Shown: positions 4,301 through 27,111, counted from the whole stretch's first letter. The stretch: DNA of 62,573 nt, filler included, from Rhabdomonas costata (GCA_019059605.1; 40 parts of 40 records of this genome joined end to end with filler, not necessarily neighbours in it); one strand, 5' to 3'. Program-made: numbers and translations. The notes: generated from the letters alone by a model not told the origin.

Positions 4301-4705
4301 TCCTCTTAAAAAAACTCATCCACAAATGGGTCTTCCAAGCCAAAGACAATGGGAAGAAGGCCGTTTACTTGGTTCCTGCGGCCGCCGCAGCCACGAGAGC
4401 TACGGCTTCAAAAGGAAGCGCCTGAACCGAAGAACTACATGAAGCAGCAAAAAGAATCTGCACCGGAAGAAAAAAGACGACATTACGACCAACGCACCAA
4501 ACGTTGCAAGATTGGATGTTGCACACTGGTAGCCGGAACCGCCAAAATTTCCACCGCAGAAATGTCCTGACGTTTCCTCGACGTCGTAAACGGTACCGCA
4601 GATTANNNNNNNNNNNNNNNNNNNNNNNNNNNNNNNNNNNNNNNNNNNNTTAATTAATTAANNNNNNNNNNNNNNNNNNNNNNNNNNNNNNNNNNNNNNN
4701 NNNNN

Positions 4706-6049
4706 GGTGGGTGATGGCGAACGCGAGGGGCTAGAGGAAAGACTAGTTGAAGGAGTGGAAGTAAGTGACACGGTAGAAGAAGAAGTGTCTGTAATGTTCC
4801 ATGTGAACGTTCGAGAAACAGCGGTAGAGCGACTTAGGGTGAGAGTCTTCGCCGGAGTAACGGTTGCGGTCGAAGGCGGGGAAACGGAGCGGCTGGCGGT
4901 AGGGCTCGGTGTGCGCTGGGATGTCCACGACAATGATTCGGTGGCTGCCTTACTGATCGTGAGAGAGGCACTCGCTGTTGCAGTATCTCGGTCGGTTGCG
5001 GACAAGGTGCGGGTTTGCGTCACCTGTGCAAAGCTTTCCGTATTAGTTGAAGATTTCGTGGTGGTACTGGTAATCGCGAGACTCACGGACATCGAAGTGG
5101 TGACAAGCCTCGTAAGAGATGCGGTAGGCACCTGGGAGAAGGTGGGGGAGATGGTAGGCGTAGGTGAAGGAGTTGGAGGTGGACTGCAAGAAGGAGTCAA
5201 CGAGAAACTTCCGGTCGGCTTAAAAGTTTCACTGATGGTTGAAGTGGGCGTCTTGGTGAGGCTGGACCACGAGAGAGATCGAGAGGAACTGAGTGAAAGG
5301 CTCGGAGTTGCGGTTGCTCTGAAGGTACTTGAGCATGTTGAGGACACGGATGCAGTTACCACGTCCTTGCTTTCGCTCTGTGTTGTGGTCAGCGTCAGAG
5401 AGTGTCGCAAAGTAGAAGTTTTTGTCACAGTGGGAGCAACAGGACGGGTAAAGGAAGAGGAAGCACTTTCACTGCTCGTCAAAGTCGGGGTTGATGACCT
5501 CGACAGCGTGGGAAAAGGACTAATTGAGGGAGATGGGCTCCCTGTAAGGCTTTCAGCTGGGGTCAGCGACACACTCAGAGTATATGGGGGAAGTTGAGAA
5601 CGAGTTGAGCTGTACGTTTTGGAAAGGGTGCGCGAAATTGTTCGAGGAGATGTCGAAGTCAAAGAGACTGAGGAGGAGTACGTGGGACTTGCTCGGCGAC
5701 TGGATGAGGATGTGATAGTACTGCTCAAAGTGTGGCTGACGGACGCGTAGACTGAATAGCTGGAGCTGTGCGTAATCGTGAGAAGCACCGTCAATGTGGA
5801 TGACGCAACGGGTGTGGAAGAAAAAGACGGCGTGAGCGACGCAGAAGGCGTGCTGGGAGTGGAGCTGGGAGTCTGAGTGGGTGTCTTCGTTTTGGAGCTC
5901 GTTAGGCTGCGTAGGAAGCTCAGAGTGGGCGAAAGGCTTGAGGAAAGGGTCGCAGTGACGTCGTACGTCAGTGTGGCAGTTGGGGTCATAGTAATGCGGA
6001 GTACGGTGGGGGTCAATGTGCTGGTTGGCTCCCGCGTGAGAGTGTGGGA
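4706..6049 (-). CDS. Ser/Thr/Pro-rich mucin-like protein segment, partial
   Basis: About 445 uninterrupted codons dominated by S, T, P and L; open to the contig edge. Confidence 0.8.
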
Positions 6050-6273: not shown

Positions 6274-7741
6274 GGCCGTGCCGCAAATTGACACCAAGAG
6301 GCCCCGTGTGTCCATGACATACACCCCGGACATGTAAATGGGAAGCGCACACGATAGCACCATGCCGCCGATACCCATCCAGTACATCATCGTCTCCTTC
6401 CGCGTCACGCCCAGGGCATGCTCCCGATGCTCTTTGAAGGTGAGATTGGCGGACATATCAAGCATATCCATTTCGACGGGCATGTATAAGCCCCCTCGGT
6501 ACCGGAAATACTGATTAGACGAGGGGTCCCTTACTACACAGCGGACCCACTCATTTCGAATCAGTCGGTGTATATCCTCTCTTCGCCCCAAAACGGCTCT
6601 CACCCGATCCACTGGTGCGTCGATGACAATCAGAGCACGAATGGGCACGTGCATTTCGGTCATCTGAGTGGGTAGCCCGGGCCGCAGGTCCCCTCTGGTG
6701 CCCTGCAGAACCCCGATGTTGCCCACGACATTCAGAGGGGCCTTCGTGCCTGGGCCATGGTGCTCGTGACTGATGGTGGAGTACAGATACTCCAGGTTGA
6801 TGCCGGAGGCCACCACAAGAGCGGGAGCCAGCACCAGCTCCAGGTTCGTACCTCTCTCATCGTCCGCAAACGGGTCGTAAGAAGGCAAAAAGGCACGCCG
6901 GTCAAGAAAGCGGCCCTTGGTGAGCTCTCGCCGACCCACTACCACGGCCGCATTAGTCGCATGGTTGAGTTCAGGCCGCGCTTCGGCGGGGTCAATCGAG
7001 CGAAGGAGAACGTGCCGAAGGGCCTCCTTCTCCGTCTTTACTTCCGCGGCGAGCAAAAATCTCTGGCATCTCTCAAAGGCATTCTTCCCGCGCGCCTGCT
7101 CCAGAACCCCTTGGGCGGCTGCAAAGCGCTCACTGTGAGACCCCGGGAGGGCATCCAAATCGTAATACGTGATGGTTTCTGCAGTGGTGTTGTGCAGAGC
7201 CCCGATAAAGACGGTGTCATCCGGGATGGTGATGTCATGATTCTGTCAACAAAAAGATAACGTCTTAAAAACGTCAAAACCCAAGTCAACACATTGACAC
7301 CCATTGAAGCCCACCAGATGCCCTACTCCACCAACAAGAAGAACAGAAAGAAAATGACAAAAAAATGAACATTACTGACCTTCTTGAGATGCTCCCGCAC
7401 AACTCGGTCGTTAGCCAGCCGCGCGAAGAGCCGGGCGTTCGGGCCACCCTCGTGACCACAGCATGCGCCGCAGTTATATGCCGCCATGAACGGATTGTTC
7501 ACACTGGTGGCGCCGTGGCCCATCACAATCACAACAGGTGCGAAGCGACGAGTTTCTTGGACGCCAACGTTCTTGAAAGTTTGAGCCAGCAACGTGGCCC
7601 CCACATCTGGCGGAAAGGGCAGCTGAAAGTCGGTCCGCGGGGCCTTCACAAACCGGTCCAGAAGATCCTTCAGTTTCTGCCGAATAATGGGGGCAAACCC
7701 AAATACGTACAGCCGTGCAAGAGACAGAGGAAACAACAAAC
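6274..7741 (-). CDS. dabA: DabA/MpsB-like (DUF2309/UPF0753) inorganic carbon pump subunit with C-terminal membrane extension, partial; exons 7741-7380 and 7242-6274
   Basis: Motifs in canonical order: FAPVVIVMGHG-NNP-CGACCG-GPNAR, IPDDTVFIGALHNTT, RSIDPAEARPE, LDRRAFLPSYD, INLEYLYST, GTKAPLNVVGNIGVLQGTRGDLRPGLP, LIRNEWV. A 137-bp phase-0 GT-AG intron (7379-7243) restores the frame exactly. Confidence 0.95.
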
Positions 7742-9300: not shown

Positions 9301-11511
9301 NNNNNNNNNNNNNNNNNNNNNNNNNNNNNNNNNNNNNNNNNNNNTTAATTAATTAANNNNNNNNNNNNNNNNNNNNNNNNNNNNNNNNNNNNNNNNNNNN
9401 TCTGCGTCGGAGGGCTTCGAGTCCCCCAGCTTGCGGGATCCCCTTTTTCCTTCTTCCTTCTCATTCGCTGCAAGTTTGCTCTCTCCGTGTGGGACCCCCA
9501 CTGTTGAGACAAAATTTGAAGAAAAAAACAGAAAATCAATGCAGCCGGCCAGGGGTGAAACGACCGGCGGCAGTGGGCCCCATCTGCAAAAGCTGTCTGA
9601 CTTCCGCAGCAGCCGCGAGCATTGTACAGCGGAAGCGTGATTTAGATTTTTCAAGCAAAGCCCCAAATCTTAAAATGGCATAAATGCTTCTGAAATGCAG
9701 TTATATTTAACAGAAATGCTTCGGGAAACGCATTCATGCTTAGCATAAATAGCAGCATAAATGCAGCGCAAAAGGGGGGAAGGGGGGGGGGTGTTCAGCA
9801 GCCTGTAGCCTGTGATGGACGCAACGGGGACCTGACGTAGTTGTTCTGTGGCTCGCGTATTGACCAAAGACATCGAAACATCAAGAAGGGGAGGGAAACA
9901 TTGCAAGCACAGTAATTCTTTCATTTTTCTCTTTGCGGAACAAGACACTGGGGGGTATTAAGTAGGGAACCTGGTACACGTGGACCCCATTTCAAGCACA
10001 AGCACTCCCATTTGAAGGCCAATTAGAAACCTGAGAAGCAGCCTTTCGAATTTACTAGTGCACACTATTCTCAGTCTGCAGACGTCTGGCCCAGTTTCCC
10101 TTTGCCAGTTTTGCTTTCCAGAAGCCAGCGCCTTTGTCTTCTCTGTGCACTGGTGCTGTGTGTATTTGTAAAAGATAAAAGAACTGAAATATTTCTGTTC
10201 ATTTTTATATATTTATCACTGCCCCCAGTCCCGAAACGCTGCGTGGCCGGTCCTTGGGGTCAGGAGATTCCCGATCTTTCACCCTCAGCCGGTTGTAGTG
10301 CCCCTTGGTGGCTGTTTTGTAACCCTTTTGCTCCTCTTCTTGCCCCACGCGGCGGAGAGTTTACGACAGCACCTATAACGTACTTTACAACGAAACTCAC
10401 GCCGAAAGGGACTAGGCAACTGGCTCTGGGCCGCGTGAAGCCCACAAAAATCACCTCAACACTGCATCACTGTCACCCCATGTTCACTGTTTCCCAACTA
10501 GTTGTGTGCTTTTTCGCGTAGTTCTCCACCTTGCCCCTGCCCCTGTAAGCTGGTTCGTGATGGTTCATATCTCCAACCCGAACGCCGTTATTTTTCGGCT
10601 TGCCTGGCCAGAAAACAGTGCATGCGGCTCGGGGAGGAGCTGGTGGTGTGCTCTAAGCGGCTGTGGAGGCGCCTCTCCAGTGCGGTGGCCCGGTCGCTGC
10701 TCTGCGGTATTGGGACGGGTCCTGGGCAGTCCGCTCCGGGTTCCGTACCAGCGGAACCCTGAACACTACCAGCAGCCTTGCGCTGAAGCCCGTACGTGGG
10801 TAGGTTCGTAGAGCTTCCACTCCTGATTGTTGTTCATGCTGCCGCCTCGCGACAGCCCATTGTCCTTTGNNNNNNNNNNNNNNNNNNNNNNNNNNNNNNN
10901 NNNNNNNNNNNNNTTAATTAATTAANNNNNNNNNNNNNNNNNNNNNNNNNNNNNNNNNNNNNNNNNNNNTTGTTTTGGGATGGTAGTGGAGTTGATTCCA
11001 ATTGGTATTTTCTCAGAAAAATTTTGGGAGGAGGGGGGAGGGGAACAAAATTCGCATGCAATTTCAAGCTTGCCTTAGTTTCATCAGAGATTACACAGGA
11101 ATGTATCAATATATGCATCAATATCGAATACCAAATCGAGAAAAATGTACCCCCGCGCAAGCGATGCAGAATCAGACATCGAGTGCCCACAGTCACAACC
11201 TTTAGCAATGATGACGTAAATCTTACACATCAAGTACCAGCAGTGATTTTAACGAGTAAGAAATAGCACCCTGTATGTCCCAAAATCCAAAATCGGTAAT
11301 TTGTGCCAAGCGCTCTCTCTCTCTCTCTTTAAACTTACTTCAGTTTAAGACCGCGCTACTGATAATTGAATGGCGTCGACACACGTTTGGCCGCTATAGA
11401 TGAGCACCTTCCCATCACGCCCACAAAATATCCGCACTCCCGGACACGCAAGAGCCAAAGAAGTGGTCAAAAAGGGATGCCAAGCAAGGCACAAGGATGT
11501 GGGCAGGCCAC

Positions 11512-11689
11512 CTGGGATATCCAGCACTCGTAGAGTCTCTGAGGCGGCCAGGACCCCACTGAGCTGCGCGGCGAGATCCACGCTGAGGTTGGCGTTCAGG
11601 GCAGAAGCGCTGGTGCCCAGCCGCAGCTCGGTAAGGCCCTTGGCTCCCCGCAGCGCGGGCAGCAGCGCGGCGAGGCCCTCATCATCCAG
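11512..11689 (-). CDS. Exon of a ribonuclease-inhibitor-type leucine-rich repeat protein
   Basis: LDDEGLAALLPAL..LTELRL and LAASETLRVLDI; GC-rich exon bounded by CAG and GT. Confidence 0.65.
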
Positions 11690-12536: not shown

Positions 12537-13732
12537 GGTGGTGTGGCTGTACTCGCGGTGGAGCTGCTCCATCTTCTCATCAAGCTTGGAGTCCACCAGG
12601 GCCTTCTCCAGCCCGGCCTGACCCTCTGTGGAGTCCGGCAGGAAGTCCGGGCGGTTCTCGGATCGGTTGTAAATCATCCTTTACAGGAAACCCACCCCAT
12701 CAAAAAAAGATGGATGCCTGCATGTTTGTGTCTGGTTGGTGCGCCGATAGCGGCGCCGGGGATGCTGGCAGCTGGGAGCTGATGCCACGGAGCTGAAGTG
12801 TGGTTGAGACTTCCTCGGGTGCCCTCGTCTTTACCGAAATCTACCGGGCACGAGATGCTTGCCAAAGACTCTCGGCTGCCACAGCCTTGCCGTGACGATG
12901 GCTCTGCGTTGAGTGAGTGACCCCCCCCCACTATTCACCCTCGTGAATAGAGAACACTTTTCATGAGTGGTGTTCGCCACGCACGGCTGAGGACCTCCGC
13001 TTCGGAAAAACTTCGAAACGGACCTAACAGTACGTAACGGGGTTCCGTGATCGCATGGAAGCGTTTTGCGCCCAGTGCTGGGTACATTTTCTCATGCGCT
13101 TGTGTCAAGTTGCTCTATTTGAGCTATGTTTCGCCTACGAAAATGTTCTGTGAGTTGATAGAAGAGAAAGGTGATGGGAAACATTTTTATGCGCTAAGCT
13201 GAGTAGCGGCAAACGCTAATCATGAATAACGAACGCAACCCACAGCCGAATACGGCGTCAATGGCACCGCTACAGCGGCTATTGCGGTGAGGGGGGAGGG
13301 CAAAAGAGTCCATGACATCCCATATGACTCCAGAAAGACTGAAGGCATCTGGGTCCGGGAAAAATTCCTCCGGGAAAACCGACGAGAAAGAAACTCGAGA
13401 AACCTGTTACGAGGTGATATCGCAAAACGGATCCGGACAGAAAAACTGTCGCCGCAGTACTTCTAACACACAGCCCACATCCCAGCGTGGTTACACTGCT
13501 TTTACTTTCCCAGATTCTCCCTCGCCCTCATTGTGACCAACTAACCAAAATAATCAAAGTATCAGGACAAAATTCTTGGAGAACGCAGAGATTTTCAGAA
13601 AGGTGGGTCTCATCCCCTCCGAATCCGCCGGCGCTGAGTGTGCCACCCCGCAACCTGTGCACGTATCGATCCGCCTCGTAGCACCAGACCCGTTGGGACT
13701 CAAGCTCGATGGCAAAGCTGTGGCCGGACTCC
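12537..13732 (-). CDS. BRAP: BRCA1-associated protein (BRAP2/ETP1) homologue, partial; exons 13732-13655 and 12678-12537
   Basis: zf-UBP tail ESGHSFAIELESQRVWCYEADRYVHR, spliced (phase 2) to MIYN...SKLDEKMEQLHREYSH, the BRAP2 coiled-coil entry. Confidence 0.8.
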
Positions 13733-14709
13733 CTGTGATAACACCAACGAAAGGACAACGACTTGGGGCCAACATATGACCTGAACAGGGAAGACTGGGA
13801 AACTATTTATTCCACATATATGGCGCGCGTCATGTCAAAAGAGAGAGTTACTGCCGAAGCAAAAAATTTGCAAAAACGGACCATGAAAACTCAAGAAAAG
13901 ATGTGATGACACTCATAAGGTCGTTTTAACGTCAATGGCTGAAAAATTCCACATGCACCCCGTAAAGTCGCGCGCCATGAGAGAAAACCATGTTACCATG
14001 TGGNNNNNNNNNNNNNNNNNNNNNNNNNNNNNNNNNNNNNNNNNNNNTTAATTAATTAANNNNNNNNNNNNNNNNNNNNNNNNNNNNNNNNNNNNNNNNN
14101 NNNGGGTGGTGGTGTTACTCAAGGAGGGGGGGGGCGCACCAGCTCGATCTGCCACTGCTGAGCCTCAGCTGCGCTGGCGGTGGGCTCTCGGATTGTAAGG
14201 AAGCCAATGCCCACACCACGGGCGGCCTGCTCCGCGGCGGCGGCGGGTGGGGTGGGCCCACGGTGATGGAGATGCGCCTGGAGCAGCGCGGGGTGTGCCC
14301 CAGAGGACAGGTCCTGCGCAGATCACACAGAGGTCAATGGAGGAAACACCAAGAAAGAACAGATGGTAAGAAACCACGTCAATCCAAGAAGCGCCACATA
14401 CATACTCTGTCATACTCTCTCGGAAGCCTCGTAACAGAAAAGCACAACACTGGAATTATTCGCGCAATCCAACAAATCGATTACTGCAATTGCACTTATC
14501 CTTATACTTATCAACATAACCATGAACATGACATGTTTTTGGTCCCTCAGGGTTGGCCGATCTTCTTGCTCATCATCCTCTGCTTTGGTGGTTCTGGATT
14601 GACACAACACCTCTTCGATGTCTGCTCTCCTCCTTCAACTCCTTCAATTGCAATTAGCCCTTCTTTTCATGAAGATTAAACGTGTCACAAAAAAGTGGGG
14701 ACGAGTAAG

Positions 14710-24229: not shown

Positions 24230-26089
24230 CGGAGCAGGAAACTAAGCACAGAGCCCGTTGCAAAAGCATTGGAGACACAATCATCATAATATTGTAACAA
24301 CCGAAAAAAAAAAGAAGTGCACTTTAAAATCAGGCTTTGTCGGACGCAGGAAGTCAAGGGGGTGGGGAAGCTGCTTTGTTCCTGGTGGTGTTTTTGCTTC
24401 CTTTTGGCCTGTTCTTCTGAGCCCTCTTCCTTTTGAGATGACGAGGGCCGCATAAGATCAGAACAGAAATTCCAGGACCCAGGAATCAACATCAATAGCT
24501 GGGGCGAAAACGAAAGGATCGGACAGCACAATGCCAAAAGACGAGTTAAGTTGCGGGAAAGGAAATGCGCTCAAGGTAGGTAGGGGGGTTCACTTCTTTC
24601 TTCTTCTTCCCCTCTCCTCCCCTGCCCTCACCCCGGAGCACAGTTCGAGGTTCATTTTCGAAGGGCATCATTTGTCAAACTAGAAAATGACGGTGCGCGA
24701 TGCTCTTCGCAGTGAGCTGCGCACGAGCACTTATGCACGCTTATGTGGTATGTGCGAAGGACATCGATTCTATTTCCAACTGTTCGCGCGTCCACCTCAT
24801 CTTTCATTTCAGAGAGTTAGAATGTTGAACTTTTGCACAGCCCTGAAAGGAGAGTGAGCCCGAATGAGCGAAACGATGTGTCGGTCCTGGAAGGGAAGGG
24901 AAGGGAAGTGGGTTCATGGTAACCACTCGTACCCCCCCACCCCCACCTCTTTGATCTTCAGCACGGGGACCCGTTNNNNNNNNNNNNNNNNNNNNNNNNN
25001 NNNNNNNNNNNNNNNNNNNTTAATTAATTAANNNNNNNNNNNNNNNNNNNNNNNNNNNNNNNNNNNNNNNNNNNNGTGGTGTGTTTCAATTTCCGGCACT
25101 TGTCTCTCCCCTTCCGGCGCCCACGTCTATGCATTGCTTTCGTTTTTGTTTGCGCTATTGGGTGCGGACATAGAAACCGCCTTGGGGGTTCCTCACCGTG
25201 CCCGTTTCTGGTGCAGTTAATTCGTTTTCCACTAAGCTCGCAGTGATTAATGGCCGGGGGTGCGACGAACCAAAGCCAGCTTTCAAAAAAAAAAAAAGGA
25301 GAAAAAACTAAGCCCCCGATAAAAAATCATGCCCAGAATGTCCTTTAAATGGGCTTATCAAGGGGTCAGAATGGGAGTGGGAGGGTAATTTTTGTCCGCT
25401 TGCGGATGACGACCCTGCTTATTTGGGGATTGATGCCTCCCATCTCCACAGAGTTCCCTTTTCCCTTCTGGTCGCTTTTTCCATTTTCGGGTGTGGGACT
25501 CCCTTTTTGCTTTTTGCCTCGGAGGTAAAGGCCTCGGTGTGCGGTTCTCTTTTTGAGGGAACAGTGCATTCGGTGGCCCCTGGGCGAGAATGGCCATGGA
25601 GCAGGTCAGCTCTGTTGCTTGCATCCTCCTGTGCTGCCTTTTTTTTCGGGTGGCTGCGGGGAACTTTTTGTGCACGCCGGTGTTTTTCCCACCAGGTATA
25701 ATTATCCCCGTGAAACAATAAAGTTGGTGTGGGGGGGGGGGGCTAAGCCGACCCCTTGCCCATTGTTGTCTCGGACGACCCCGCACCAATTTCCGCACTT
25801 CCCTCGACGCAACCCGGGGGCAAAAAGGGGGAGATGATCGGCGATGTCATCCGGGCGTACCCCGCTGGTCTTCCTTCCCCCGAAAGCACCACAGGCGTGA
25901 AGTGGGAGCTCCCCGCCGTCTCGGATGTCCCGCTGGAAGGCTGACCTCGGGGCTGGCGGCAAGCTGCGGAGGGGGCGCGCAGGGAGTAGGTGTAGGCAGA
26001 CTGCGCACCAGCCTGGCCAGCAGCTGAACCAGTCGAGCCACTGTGGAGGCCACCAGAAGGCGTGCTCCAGCTGGCAGAAGGGAAGCACA

Positions 26090-26468
26090 CGAGGAGCTCC
26101 TATTCAATGGCGCACTCCTTGTACCCACGTGGACCCTTCGGGATTGTGGAATCACTGGCAACATGACAATACAAGCACGGCATGGCCTTGGACGGCTTTG
26201 GACCCTCCGGGTGCCCCAGAACTCTCGACCTCAGCAGCGAGCCCCATCCCCACCCCTTTGCTTCCGCTTTTCGTGCGGCTGGTGGACGGCCGGTCCCTCG
26301 GTAGAGCTACCAGCTCCAGTCTGTGACCTGATGCAACTCGTCCAATCCCGCGAAGGAATTCCTGCAGAACAACAGCGCCTGCTCCACGGAGGACTTTGCC
26401 CGACTTGCCGCCTCATCGACGCCGGTCTAGTGGCAGGTTCAGAGGTGGCTTTGACGCTTCGAGGTGGC
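26090..26468 (+). pseudogene. Tandem ubiquitin-like domains, frameshifted
   Basis: LLFNGALLVPTWTLRDCGI (end of one Ubl), PLFVRLVDGRSL in a different frame, then VQSREGIPAEQQRLLHGG...LTLRGG. Confidence 0.65.
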
Positions 26469-27111
26469 AACGCCATGTCATGGGCACCAATTCCCTGCTC
26501 GGTCGACAGGCCGAGGCACCGCCTAGACTGGGTGAACGACACNNNNNNNNNNNNNNNNNNNNNNNNNNNNNNNNNNNNNNNNNNNNTTAATTAATTAANN
26601 NNNNNNNNNNNNNNNNNNNNNNNNNNNNNNNNNNNNNNNNNNGGGGTGTGGGGAAGAAGTAGGGGCCGCGTGCGCGGCTGTGGCAATGCACACACACCGC
26701 CCGACTCCACCGCTGCGGGCGCCGCTGTGGCTGAGCCCCCAGCCGCAGCTGCAAGTGTGGTCAGAGCAGGGCAGACTGAAGGGGTGCCGCTCATCCTCGA
26801 AGTGAGCAGCGAGGTCACTGTGAAGGAAAAGACGCACAGTCGCAGAATGGCAGCCCGAAGCCGTCAGTTTTTGGTTCGTGAGCGAGGTTATCGGAGTACC
26901 AAAGAGTCTGAGGCAAGCAATAAGAAGCACAGCAATGCAGGAGCAAGGCGCGCAATGAACAGAGTGGAGAAGACGGGGTGAGGGGTGGGGGTGACTTTCA
27001 AAACAAGTTGGAGTGCACATGCGCAGGCATAAGTGCATTCATGCCCCGCCCCCTACGCATTCAGAGTTGGTGTGTATGCGTGTGCGCGTTTGTGTGTGTT
27101 GGGTGCATTGA

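Follow-up and report, generated by a model that had tools for sequence, protein, structure and literature searches.

A candidate single-chain DabA-DabB gene, intron-bearing and eukaryotic, on a short contig of Rhabdomonas costata

DAB complexes are energy-coupled, or 'vectorial', carbonic anhydrases in which an enzyme, DabA, acts with a membrane subunit, DabB. According to the reports cited here and below, DabA homologues are present in more than 15 prokaryotic clades (10.1101/476713), the zinc site of DabA2 in the H. neapolitanus DAB2 complex consists of Cys351, His524 and Cys539 with an Asp353-Arg355 dyad, and the Lys235/Asp185 pair of its DabB2 is functional (both 10.64898/2026.03.13.711513). 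Joined forms are also on record: a DabA:DabB fusion of Acidimicrobium ferrooxidans is mentioned by Desmarais et al. 2018 (10.1101/476713), a preprint on the DAB1 structure notes that DabA and DabB domains are sometimes fused (10.64898/2026.05.01.722082), and an engineered Dab2, in which the C-terminus of DabB2 was joined to the N-terminus of DabA2, 'mirroring' the A. ferrooxidans protein, complements carbonic-anhydrase-free E. coli (10.64898/2026.03.13.711513). Here we describe a contig from Rhabdomonas costata (GCA_019059605.1) that very probably holds an internal portion of a nuclear gene, of eukaryotic origin, which encodes a DAB as one polypeptide with DabA first and DabB second.

The contig was found in a stretch of 62,573 bases, referred to here as the window, which is made of 40 unrelated contigs of 1,459-1,471 bp each, joined by N runs with the linker TTAATTAATTAA, a six-frame stop; the assembly is strongly fragmented, in contigs of ~1.47 kb. 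The DabA-bearing contig is the fifth (6274-7741) and carries a single gene, on the minus strand, with 443 coding codons that contain neither stop nor frameshift. Its edge at 6274 is real and adjoins an N spacer. When three of the fused relatives described below were compared with the whole window by tblastn this was the only contig matched, and the rest of the gene is not on the other 39.

The upstream exon (7380-7741, minus strand) is cut by the contig edge, has its coding frame from 7739, and encodes part of the beta-carbonic-anhydrase-like domain I of DabA. The translation of 7381-7739 matches positions 439-515 of the Pfam DabA profile (PF10070 / DUF2309; cut-off 25 bits) with a score of 99.1 bits, and the exon shares 62% identity with residues 389-506 of a fused relative, P0004 (BLASTP). 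Two of the three zinc ligands are located here, the His of a GHG motif and the first Cys of CGAC, and the corresponding H461 and C476 of P0004 align with DabA2 His524 and Cys539. The equivalents of Cys351, Asp353 and Arg355 fall upstream of the contig; in the relatives the C-I-D-D-R motif varies little or not at all. The same exon encodes the second helix of the membrane 'finger'. To its 3' side is a spliceosomal intron of 137 nt (7243-7379, minus strand), read from the sequence as a GT...AG intron of phase 0 with a pyrimidine tract before the AG. Translation through it meets stops, and the exons on either side align to consecutive residues of P0004 (506 and 507) with nothing missing. Because this GT-AG intron interrupts the DabA frame, the gene is eukaryotic and spliced.

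The DabA part of the downstream exon (6484-7242, minus strand) encodes beta-carbonic-anhydrase-like domain II and the DabA C-terminal end. Its translation is contained in P0001, the stop-free minus-strand translation of 6274-7239 (322 aa), of which residues 2-232 match positions 518-747 of the 747-position DabA profile with 275.6 bits. The match is above the cut-off and reaches the C-terminal end of the profile, placing the protein within the DabA family. The exon includes the His equivalent to DabA2 His585, and is 61-65% identical to fused relatives and 42% identical to residues 561-809 of an unfused bacterial DabA of 821 aa, P0129.

As the first-pass annotation of this DNA had pointed out, there is no stop at the usual DabA end. 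The Pfam profile ends at P0001 residue 232 and the alignment with unfused P0129 at residue 252, after which P0129 has 12 more residues; H. neapolitanus DabA2 (PDB 9rd0_A) can be aligned with a fused relative as far as the corresponding position, and the frame in the window runs on to residue 322. All three peptides which that annotation quoted are present in P0001, and its description of a linker passing into hydrophobic segments that are open to the contig edge is accurate: 70 further codons (6483-6274) specify a linker of basic character, one hydrophobic helix and the first residues of another, after which the N spacer begins. The linker (6391-6483, minus strand; P0001 residues 253-283) contains four Lys/Arg and three His residues, and its final Glu does not vary within the family (E788 of P0004; 27 of 27 aligned rows, window included). 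TM-a, the first transmembrane (TM) helix of the membrane module (6322-6390, minus strand; residues 284-306), has a hydropathy peak of 1.59, and its equivalent in an AlphaFold model of another relative, P0017, is part of a helix spanning residues 741-780. A seven-residue loop, YVMDTRG (6301-6321, minus strand), separates the two helices and aligns to A-M-N-P-x-G of the relatives. The D-x-L element that the first-pass annotation cited for the DabB N-terminus is not conserved here, most relatives having N-P-x-G where the window has D-T-R-G. Nine residues of the second helix, the equivalent of DabB/NuoL TM3, remain before the contig edge cuts it (6274-6300, minus strand). The last ten residues encoded on the contig align to P0017 786-795, the point from which the profile-profile match to bacterial DabB runs (DabB residue 85, probability 99.9). 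We considered whether the tail helices are DabA's own membrane 'finger' and rejected this, as the finger is internal (alpha16/17, domain I) and its second helix is already accounted for in the upstream exon.

Right up to the contig edge, the tail can be aligned with 25 fused relatives without a single gap. Used alone as a BLASTP query, its 70 residues match 75 of 126 test proteins at E<=1e-3, each match lying immediately after the DabA domain; there were no matches with 20 shuffled tails, and none of 16 unfused DabA or DabB proteins was matched. Because of the gap-free alignment, the invariant Glu, and these 75 matches against none for the shuffled sequences, the tail is coding sequence. A search with P0001 residues 225-322 among proteins of similar length, aimed at fragments that would prolong the tail, returned nine candidates, none of them significant.

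A relatives search restricted to longer proteins gave 4,383 significant matches among 8,000 scored candidates, and the best 120 of these, which are 48-65% identical to the window, were examined. The fused relatives are single chains of ~1,100-1,500 aa in which a NuoL/ND5-like Proton_antipo_M domain follows DabA. Precomputed Pfam assignments place PF10070 and PF00361 together in 104 of the 120, and when all are aligned jointly, 105 of the 120 extend through the tail and for 150 or more residues past it; the tail is absent from 14, and one protein, P0049, has the tail and is cut inside its DabB half. All seven relatives that were scanned with Pfam have DabA first, ending at profile position 747, and then Proton_antipo_M with scores of 33-62 bits (cut-off 21.5), the gap between the two being 127-183 residues, or 367 in Amoebophrya. 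DabA is thus first in the window and in seven of seven scanned relatives, which is not the domain order of the A. ferrooxidans type.

A FastTree phylogeny of DabA (250 columns and 123 rows, with P0104 dropped as too gappy; Shimodaira-Hasegawa-like support, no bootstrap) places the window inside a clade of 110 rows with a support of 100, support within the clade being weak. The clade is provisionally counted as 105 fused proteins, the cut P0049, the window and four labelled 'unfused'; P0049 also carries the label 'fused' in this analysis, whose group table gives 105 fused rows. Sister to the clade are unfused bacterial DabA proteins of ~1,030-1,070 aa. The window thus belongs to the DabA-then-DabB clade, and shares with its members the conserved linker and one helix following the DabA end.

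The membrane half of the relatives can be assigned by several approaches. In a search of PDB sequences, P0004 residues 254-757 match DabA2 (9rd0_A; E 4e-65), residues 822-1083 match DabB2 residues 94-371 (9rd0_B; E 1.2e-10), and residues 831-1060 match ND5 residues 98-338 (E 6e-18). Profile-profile comparison with hhalign, of 36 fused proteins against three DabB proteins, aligns P0017 786-1046 with bacterial DabB 85-363 (probability 99.9, E 3e-37). The AlphaFold2 model of P0017, built on the fused-family alignment, is confident, with a mean predicted local distance difference test score (pLDDT) of 83.2 and a predicted template modelling score (pTM) of 0.84, and its 50 best PDB fold matches found by Foldseek are all NuoL, ND5, NdhF or MrpA chains (E 5e-6 to 2e-4). 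The DAB2 structure is not among these Foldseek matches, though it was matched in the sequence search. Residues K915 and D879 of P0017, corresponding to the Lys235/Asp185 pair of DabB2, are invariant in the relatives, and the equivalent of the TM11 His (H1024) is nearly so. The TM5 Glu is absent from the relatives, as it is from DabB2 (Ile151), and an equivalent of the TM12 Lys/Asp region is undetectable in them by profile-profile comparison.

The beginning of the module has an unusual arrangement. Stand-alone DabB, as in P0126, has TM1, TM2, a loop of ~25 residues, and TM3; in the fused family the TM3 equivalent is preceded by a single helix and a 5-7-residue loop, and the YVMDTRG loop of the window is correspondingly far shorter than that of P0126. 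In NuoL-type subunits, complex I structures show the N-terminus on the outer side, and TM2 therefore runs from inside to outside. If DabA lies inside, a direct connection is therefore possible only with a helix of the TM2 kind, and the architecture of the fused family fits such a joining. From its position and this topology, TM-a would occupy the TM2 position of DabB/NuoL. When loops of P0017 are assigned alternately from the helix boundaries of the model there are 22 Lys/Arg residues on the DabA side and one on the other, a split that agrees with the positive-inside rule. The predicted topology rests on these helix boundaries and charge counts.

The first-pass annotation had proposed that a DabA-DabB fusion is encoded here as one chain. 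By homology this stands, in that 105 of the 120 best relatives are fused, the window falls in their clade, and the tail aligns with theirs without gaps; what the window itself displays is the first helix and ten residues of the core. Because the contig stops there, the onward continuation of the gene is inferred from the relatives, and on their evidence it probably extends into a full membrane module; by the pattern of the family some 370-450 more codons would be expected, containing the motifs RRYLHGEFMF, KSSQFPL and SMEGPTP and closing with two hydrophobic helices and a basic tail. Several observations weigh against a complete DAB. No residue of the window lies within Pfam Proton_antipo_M, the contig stopping ten residues into the DabB-homologous core, and in relative P0002 the PF00361 match begins 41 residues past the point aligned with the contig's end. 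Homology of TM-a to DabB TM1 or TM2 is undetectable in the profile-profile comparison, as is, by hhalign, any DabB homology outside P0017 786-1046, which leaves TM-a and the last ~130 residues of the relatives unmatched. The PF00361 matches in the relatives have modest scores and cover only positions 1 to ~230 of the 294 in the profile. The fold matches of P0017 have low TM-scores (0.28-0.43 by target length) and root-mean-square deviations of 17-23 A. The region of DabB2 TM12-15 is replaced in the relatives, so that their proton path may be different or incomplete. Finally, two members of the clade, P0094 and P0096, end ~40 residues past DabA with a different, mutually conserved C-terminus (...EVA); these may be truly unfused, and may represent a secondarily unfused or differently spliced subgroup.

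These last two proteins bear on the alternative that survives best, which we nevertheless regard as improbable: that the gene encodes a DabA with a mere one- or two-helix C-terminal anchor, or is truncated or a pseudogene past the contig edge, and is not a full fusion. The contig does end at P0001 residue 322 in an assembly of ~1.47 kb contigs, and P0094 and P0096 appear to stop soon after DabA. The tail, however, shares homology with the first part of the membrane module in the 105 fused relatives and not with the C-terminus of P0094 and P0096, and the 443 codons are uninterrupted. Moreover, the other short members of the clade are cut models. P0049 is cut inside its DabB half, and P0097 and P0102, which are metagenome proteins with 71% identity, are gene models that end after PSQMT and continue with V-initiated junk into an intron. 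This suggests that other eukaryotes have an intron at the PSQMT position; the window has none there.

Among the named sources of relatives are an amoeba, a fungus, an ancyromonad, dinoflagellates, Amoebophrya and Paulinella; the names given are Clydonella sp., Hyaloraphidium curvatum, Fabomonas tropica, Apocalathium hangoei, Amoebophrya sp. A25, Paulinella chromatophora and P. micropora, and one more relative is an MMETSP transcript. Some genes of the closest relatives are on large eukaryotic contigs, of 890 kb in Hyaloraphidium and 1.6 Mb in Amoebophrya. The metagenome contig L017 encodes, beside the fused gene of relative P0008, Integrator complex subunit 3 and a LIM-domain-binding protein (9855-11543 and 13349-14497, both minus strand), and is therefore eukaryotic. 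A motif scan of one genome from each of 185,579 prokaryotic species identified just four related loci, with ~32% identity. Three of these (L001-L003, in Oligoflexales, Bdellovibrionota and Spirosomataceae metagenome-assembled genomes) were inspected in full, and have dabA (821-854 aa) and dabB (621-631 aa) as separate open reading frames with dabA first. The two genes overlap by 4 nt in L001 and L003, and the listed dabB of L002 has a GTG start 40 nt inside dabA. The suggestion of the first-pass annotation that fusing a dabA-dabB operon did away with two coordinated transfers is conjectural; these nearest bacterial loci among those inspected do have their two genes in the order of the fused chain.

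Two apparent bacterial chains with DabA followed by DabB were also considered. P0140 (from a Flavobacteriaceae metagenome-assembled genome) and P0141 each have DabA and then Proton_antipo_N and Proton_antipo_M; the helix between DabA and the TM3 equivalent is absent from P0140, and P0141 retains TM1 as well as TM2 and breaks off after TM11. Neither was used as a candidate ancestor, since their junctions look like artefacts of deletion, frameshift or read-through and not like those of functional fusions.

Given that most characterised DAB genes are bacterial, and that the contig is short and has no other gene on it, one might suppose that it is a bacterial contaminant or an assembly chimera and that the eukaryotic fused DAB is artefactual. 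We consider this very improbable. With a spliceosomal intron in its DabA frame, the window member cannot be a bacterial contaminant; the 137 nt fall exactly between residues that are adjacent in relatives. Some of the closest relatives are on large eukaryotic contigs, another is beside strictly eukaryotic genes, and the prokaryotic scan yielded only four distant loci, unfused in the three inspected in full. The contig may come from another, contaminating eukaryote. There is next to nothing to be said for the remaining alternative, that the frame past the DabA end is non-coding and stays open by accident within an intron or 3' untranslated sequence, for although the gene has at least one intron and we estimate that a 70-codon open stretch could arise by chance in DNA of 53% GC, it is refuted by the gap-free alignment to 25 relatives, the invariant Glu, and the 75 of 126 tail matches compared with none in 20 shuffles.

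If the gene does encode a one-polypeptide DAB, a mechanism may be borrowed from the characterised bacterial DAB2 complex. The soluble DabA would be a zinc Cys2His enzyme of the beta-carbonic-anhydrase type on the cytoplasm- or matrix-like side of the membrane, and would insert a helical hairpin into the membrane module. The basic linker and TM-a would carry the chain across the membrane and into a NuoL/ND5-like proton-conducting core (equivalents of TM3-TM11), to be followed by a short, divergent C-terminal part. Proton flow through the core, down the membrane potential, would be coupled to the reaction in DabA, where CO2 is hydrated to bicarbonate in one direction only. Catalytic activity, proton coupling, topology and cellular location of the window protein are thus predictions from its relatives and from DAB2.

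As to location, the DabA-start motif was found in 31 of the 105 fused proteins, and 18 of these 31 have an N-terminal extension of at least 39 aa. In 14 of the 18 there are at least four Lys/Arg and at most one Asp/Glu in the first 40 residues, and by this composition the extensions resemble mitochondrial presequences; the window does not include the N-terminus. We therefore suggest, tentatively and with less than even confidence, that at least five lineages (Rhizaria, Alveolata, Fungi, Amoebozoa and Ancyromonadida) have a nuclear, intron-bearing, single-chain DAB that derives from its own DabA-then-DabB fusion, that one N-terminal helix of DabB was lost such that the topology was kept consistent, and that the protein is imported into mitochondria, where the inner-membrane proton gradient would drive one-way conversion of CO2 to bicarbonate in the matrix. 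The mitochondrial part of this proposal is supported because of the basic, acid-poor first 40 residues of those 14 extended relatives.

A mitochondrial DAB, if there is one, would be an energy-coupled carbonic anhydrase that has so far gone unrecognised in eukaryotic carbon metabolism, and the more general question would be how bicarbonate is supplied or CO2 retained in mitochondria or another compartment, in protists and early-branching fungi, photosynthetic or not. DAB pumps have been described as prokaryotic and are candidates for engineering carbon uptake into chloroplasts. A natural eukaryotic DAB would mean that expression, targeting and assembly of such a pump are already achieved in eukaryotes, and that the two-subunit problem has been solved otherwise than in the bacterial fusion, by a nuclear, spliced gene for one DabA-DabB chain. 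No publication on a eukaryotic DAB was found in a full-text literature search, which did not reach subscription-only papers and supplementary files, and the string 'eukaryot' does not occur in the accessible text of the three reports cited above (10.1101/476713, 10.64898/2026.05.01.722082 and 10.64898/2026.03.13.711513).

A few features elsewhere in the window may be mentioned. The contig at 4706-6173, which has a strong GC skew (0.38), is associated with a 452-codon open frame on the minus strand (4658-6016) that is nearly all Ser/Thr/Pro-rich low complexity; it could encode a mucin-like surface protein or be merely repetitive DNA. The first contig (1-1469) has a 250-codon hydrophobic open reading frame on the plus strand (691-1443) that resembles a membrane protein with several passes and leads on into T-rich sequence like that of an intron; Pfam gave nothing for it at E<=0.001. 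Among ten long open reading frames from the other contigs the sole Pfam match is a weak one, to the ubiquitin family at 26043-26594 on the plus strand (31.2 bits; cut-off 25.4). Open reading frames called across the spacers, recognisable by runs of X, are artefacts.

Of the described systems, the DAB2 complex of H. neapolitanus (DabA2 and DabB2; PDB 9rd0, 9rd8, 9rd9) is like the window family in its beta-carbonic-anhydrase-like DabA fold with a Cys2His zinc site (the His524 and Cys539 equivalents lying in the window, those of Cys351 and Asp353 being conserved in the relatives) and in its membrane-inserted helical finger, and the relatives share with it the NuoL-like core (TM3-TM11 equivalents), in which the Lys/Asp pair is kept and the TM5 Glu is absent. 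DAB2 differs in being two polypeptides, DabB2 having 15 helices including TM1, whereas the window family is one chain with a single helix before the TM3 equivalent, a short TM2-TM3 loop, and ~130 residues after TM11 in which no DabB homology is detectable; its host, moreover, is eukaryotic and its gene has an intron. The NuoL, ND5, NdhF and MrpA proteins (PF00361) resemble the membrane half of the relatives in fold and sequence, but the relatives lack the long lateral helix, the TM12 Lys/Asp region and a Proton_antipo_N match, and their module is attached to a carbonic-anhydrase-like enzyme and not to a redox module.

The bacterial loci L001-L003 have the same dabA-then-dabB order as the fused family and share the motifs PTQMTEMH and RYLHxE; they are 42% identical to the DabA part of the window, and their DabB is 32% identical to the membrane core of a fused relative. 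Their DabB differs from that of the fused family: TM1 and TM2 are both there, the loop is long, the C-terminal part is full, and the TM5 Glu is kept. The single-subunit DAC/DAB of A. ferrooxidans and the engineered Dab2 are, as described in print, like the window family in combining the DabA and DabB functions on one polypeptide, but the A. ferrooxidans type is DabB then DabA by its published description, whereas the window family is DabA then DabB. The reversed order suggests that the fusion arose separately and that the topological problem was solved in another way. Natural DAB fusions of the opposite order are already in print, and a eukaryotic clade with DabA followed by DabB appears to be undescribed; the novelty lies in DabA preceding DabB, in the shortened DabB and in the nuclear, eukaryotic setting of the gene.

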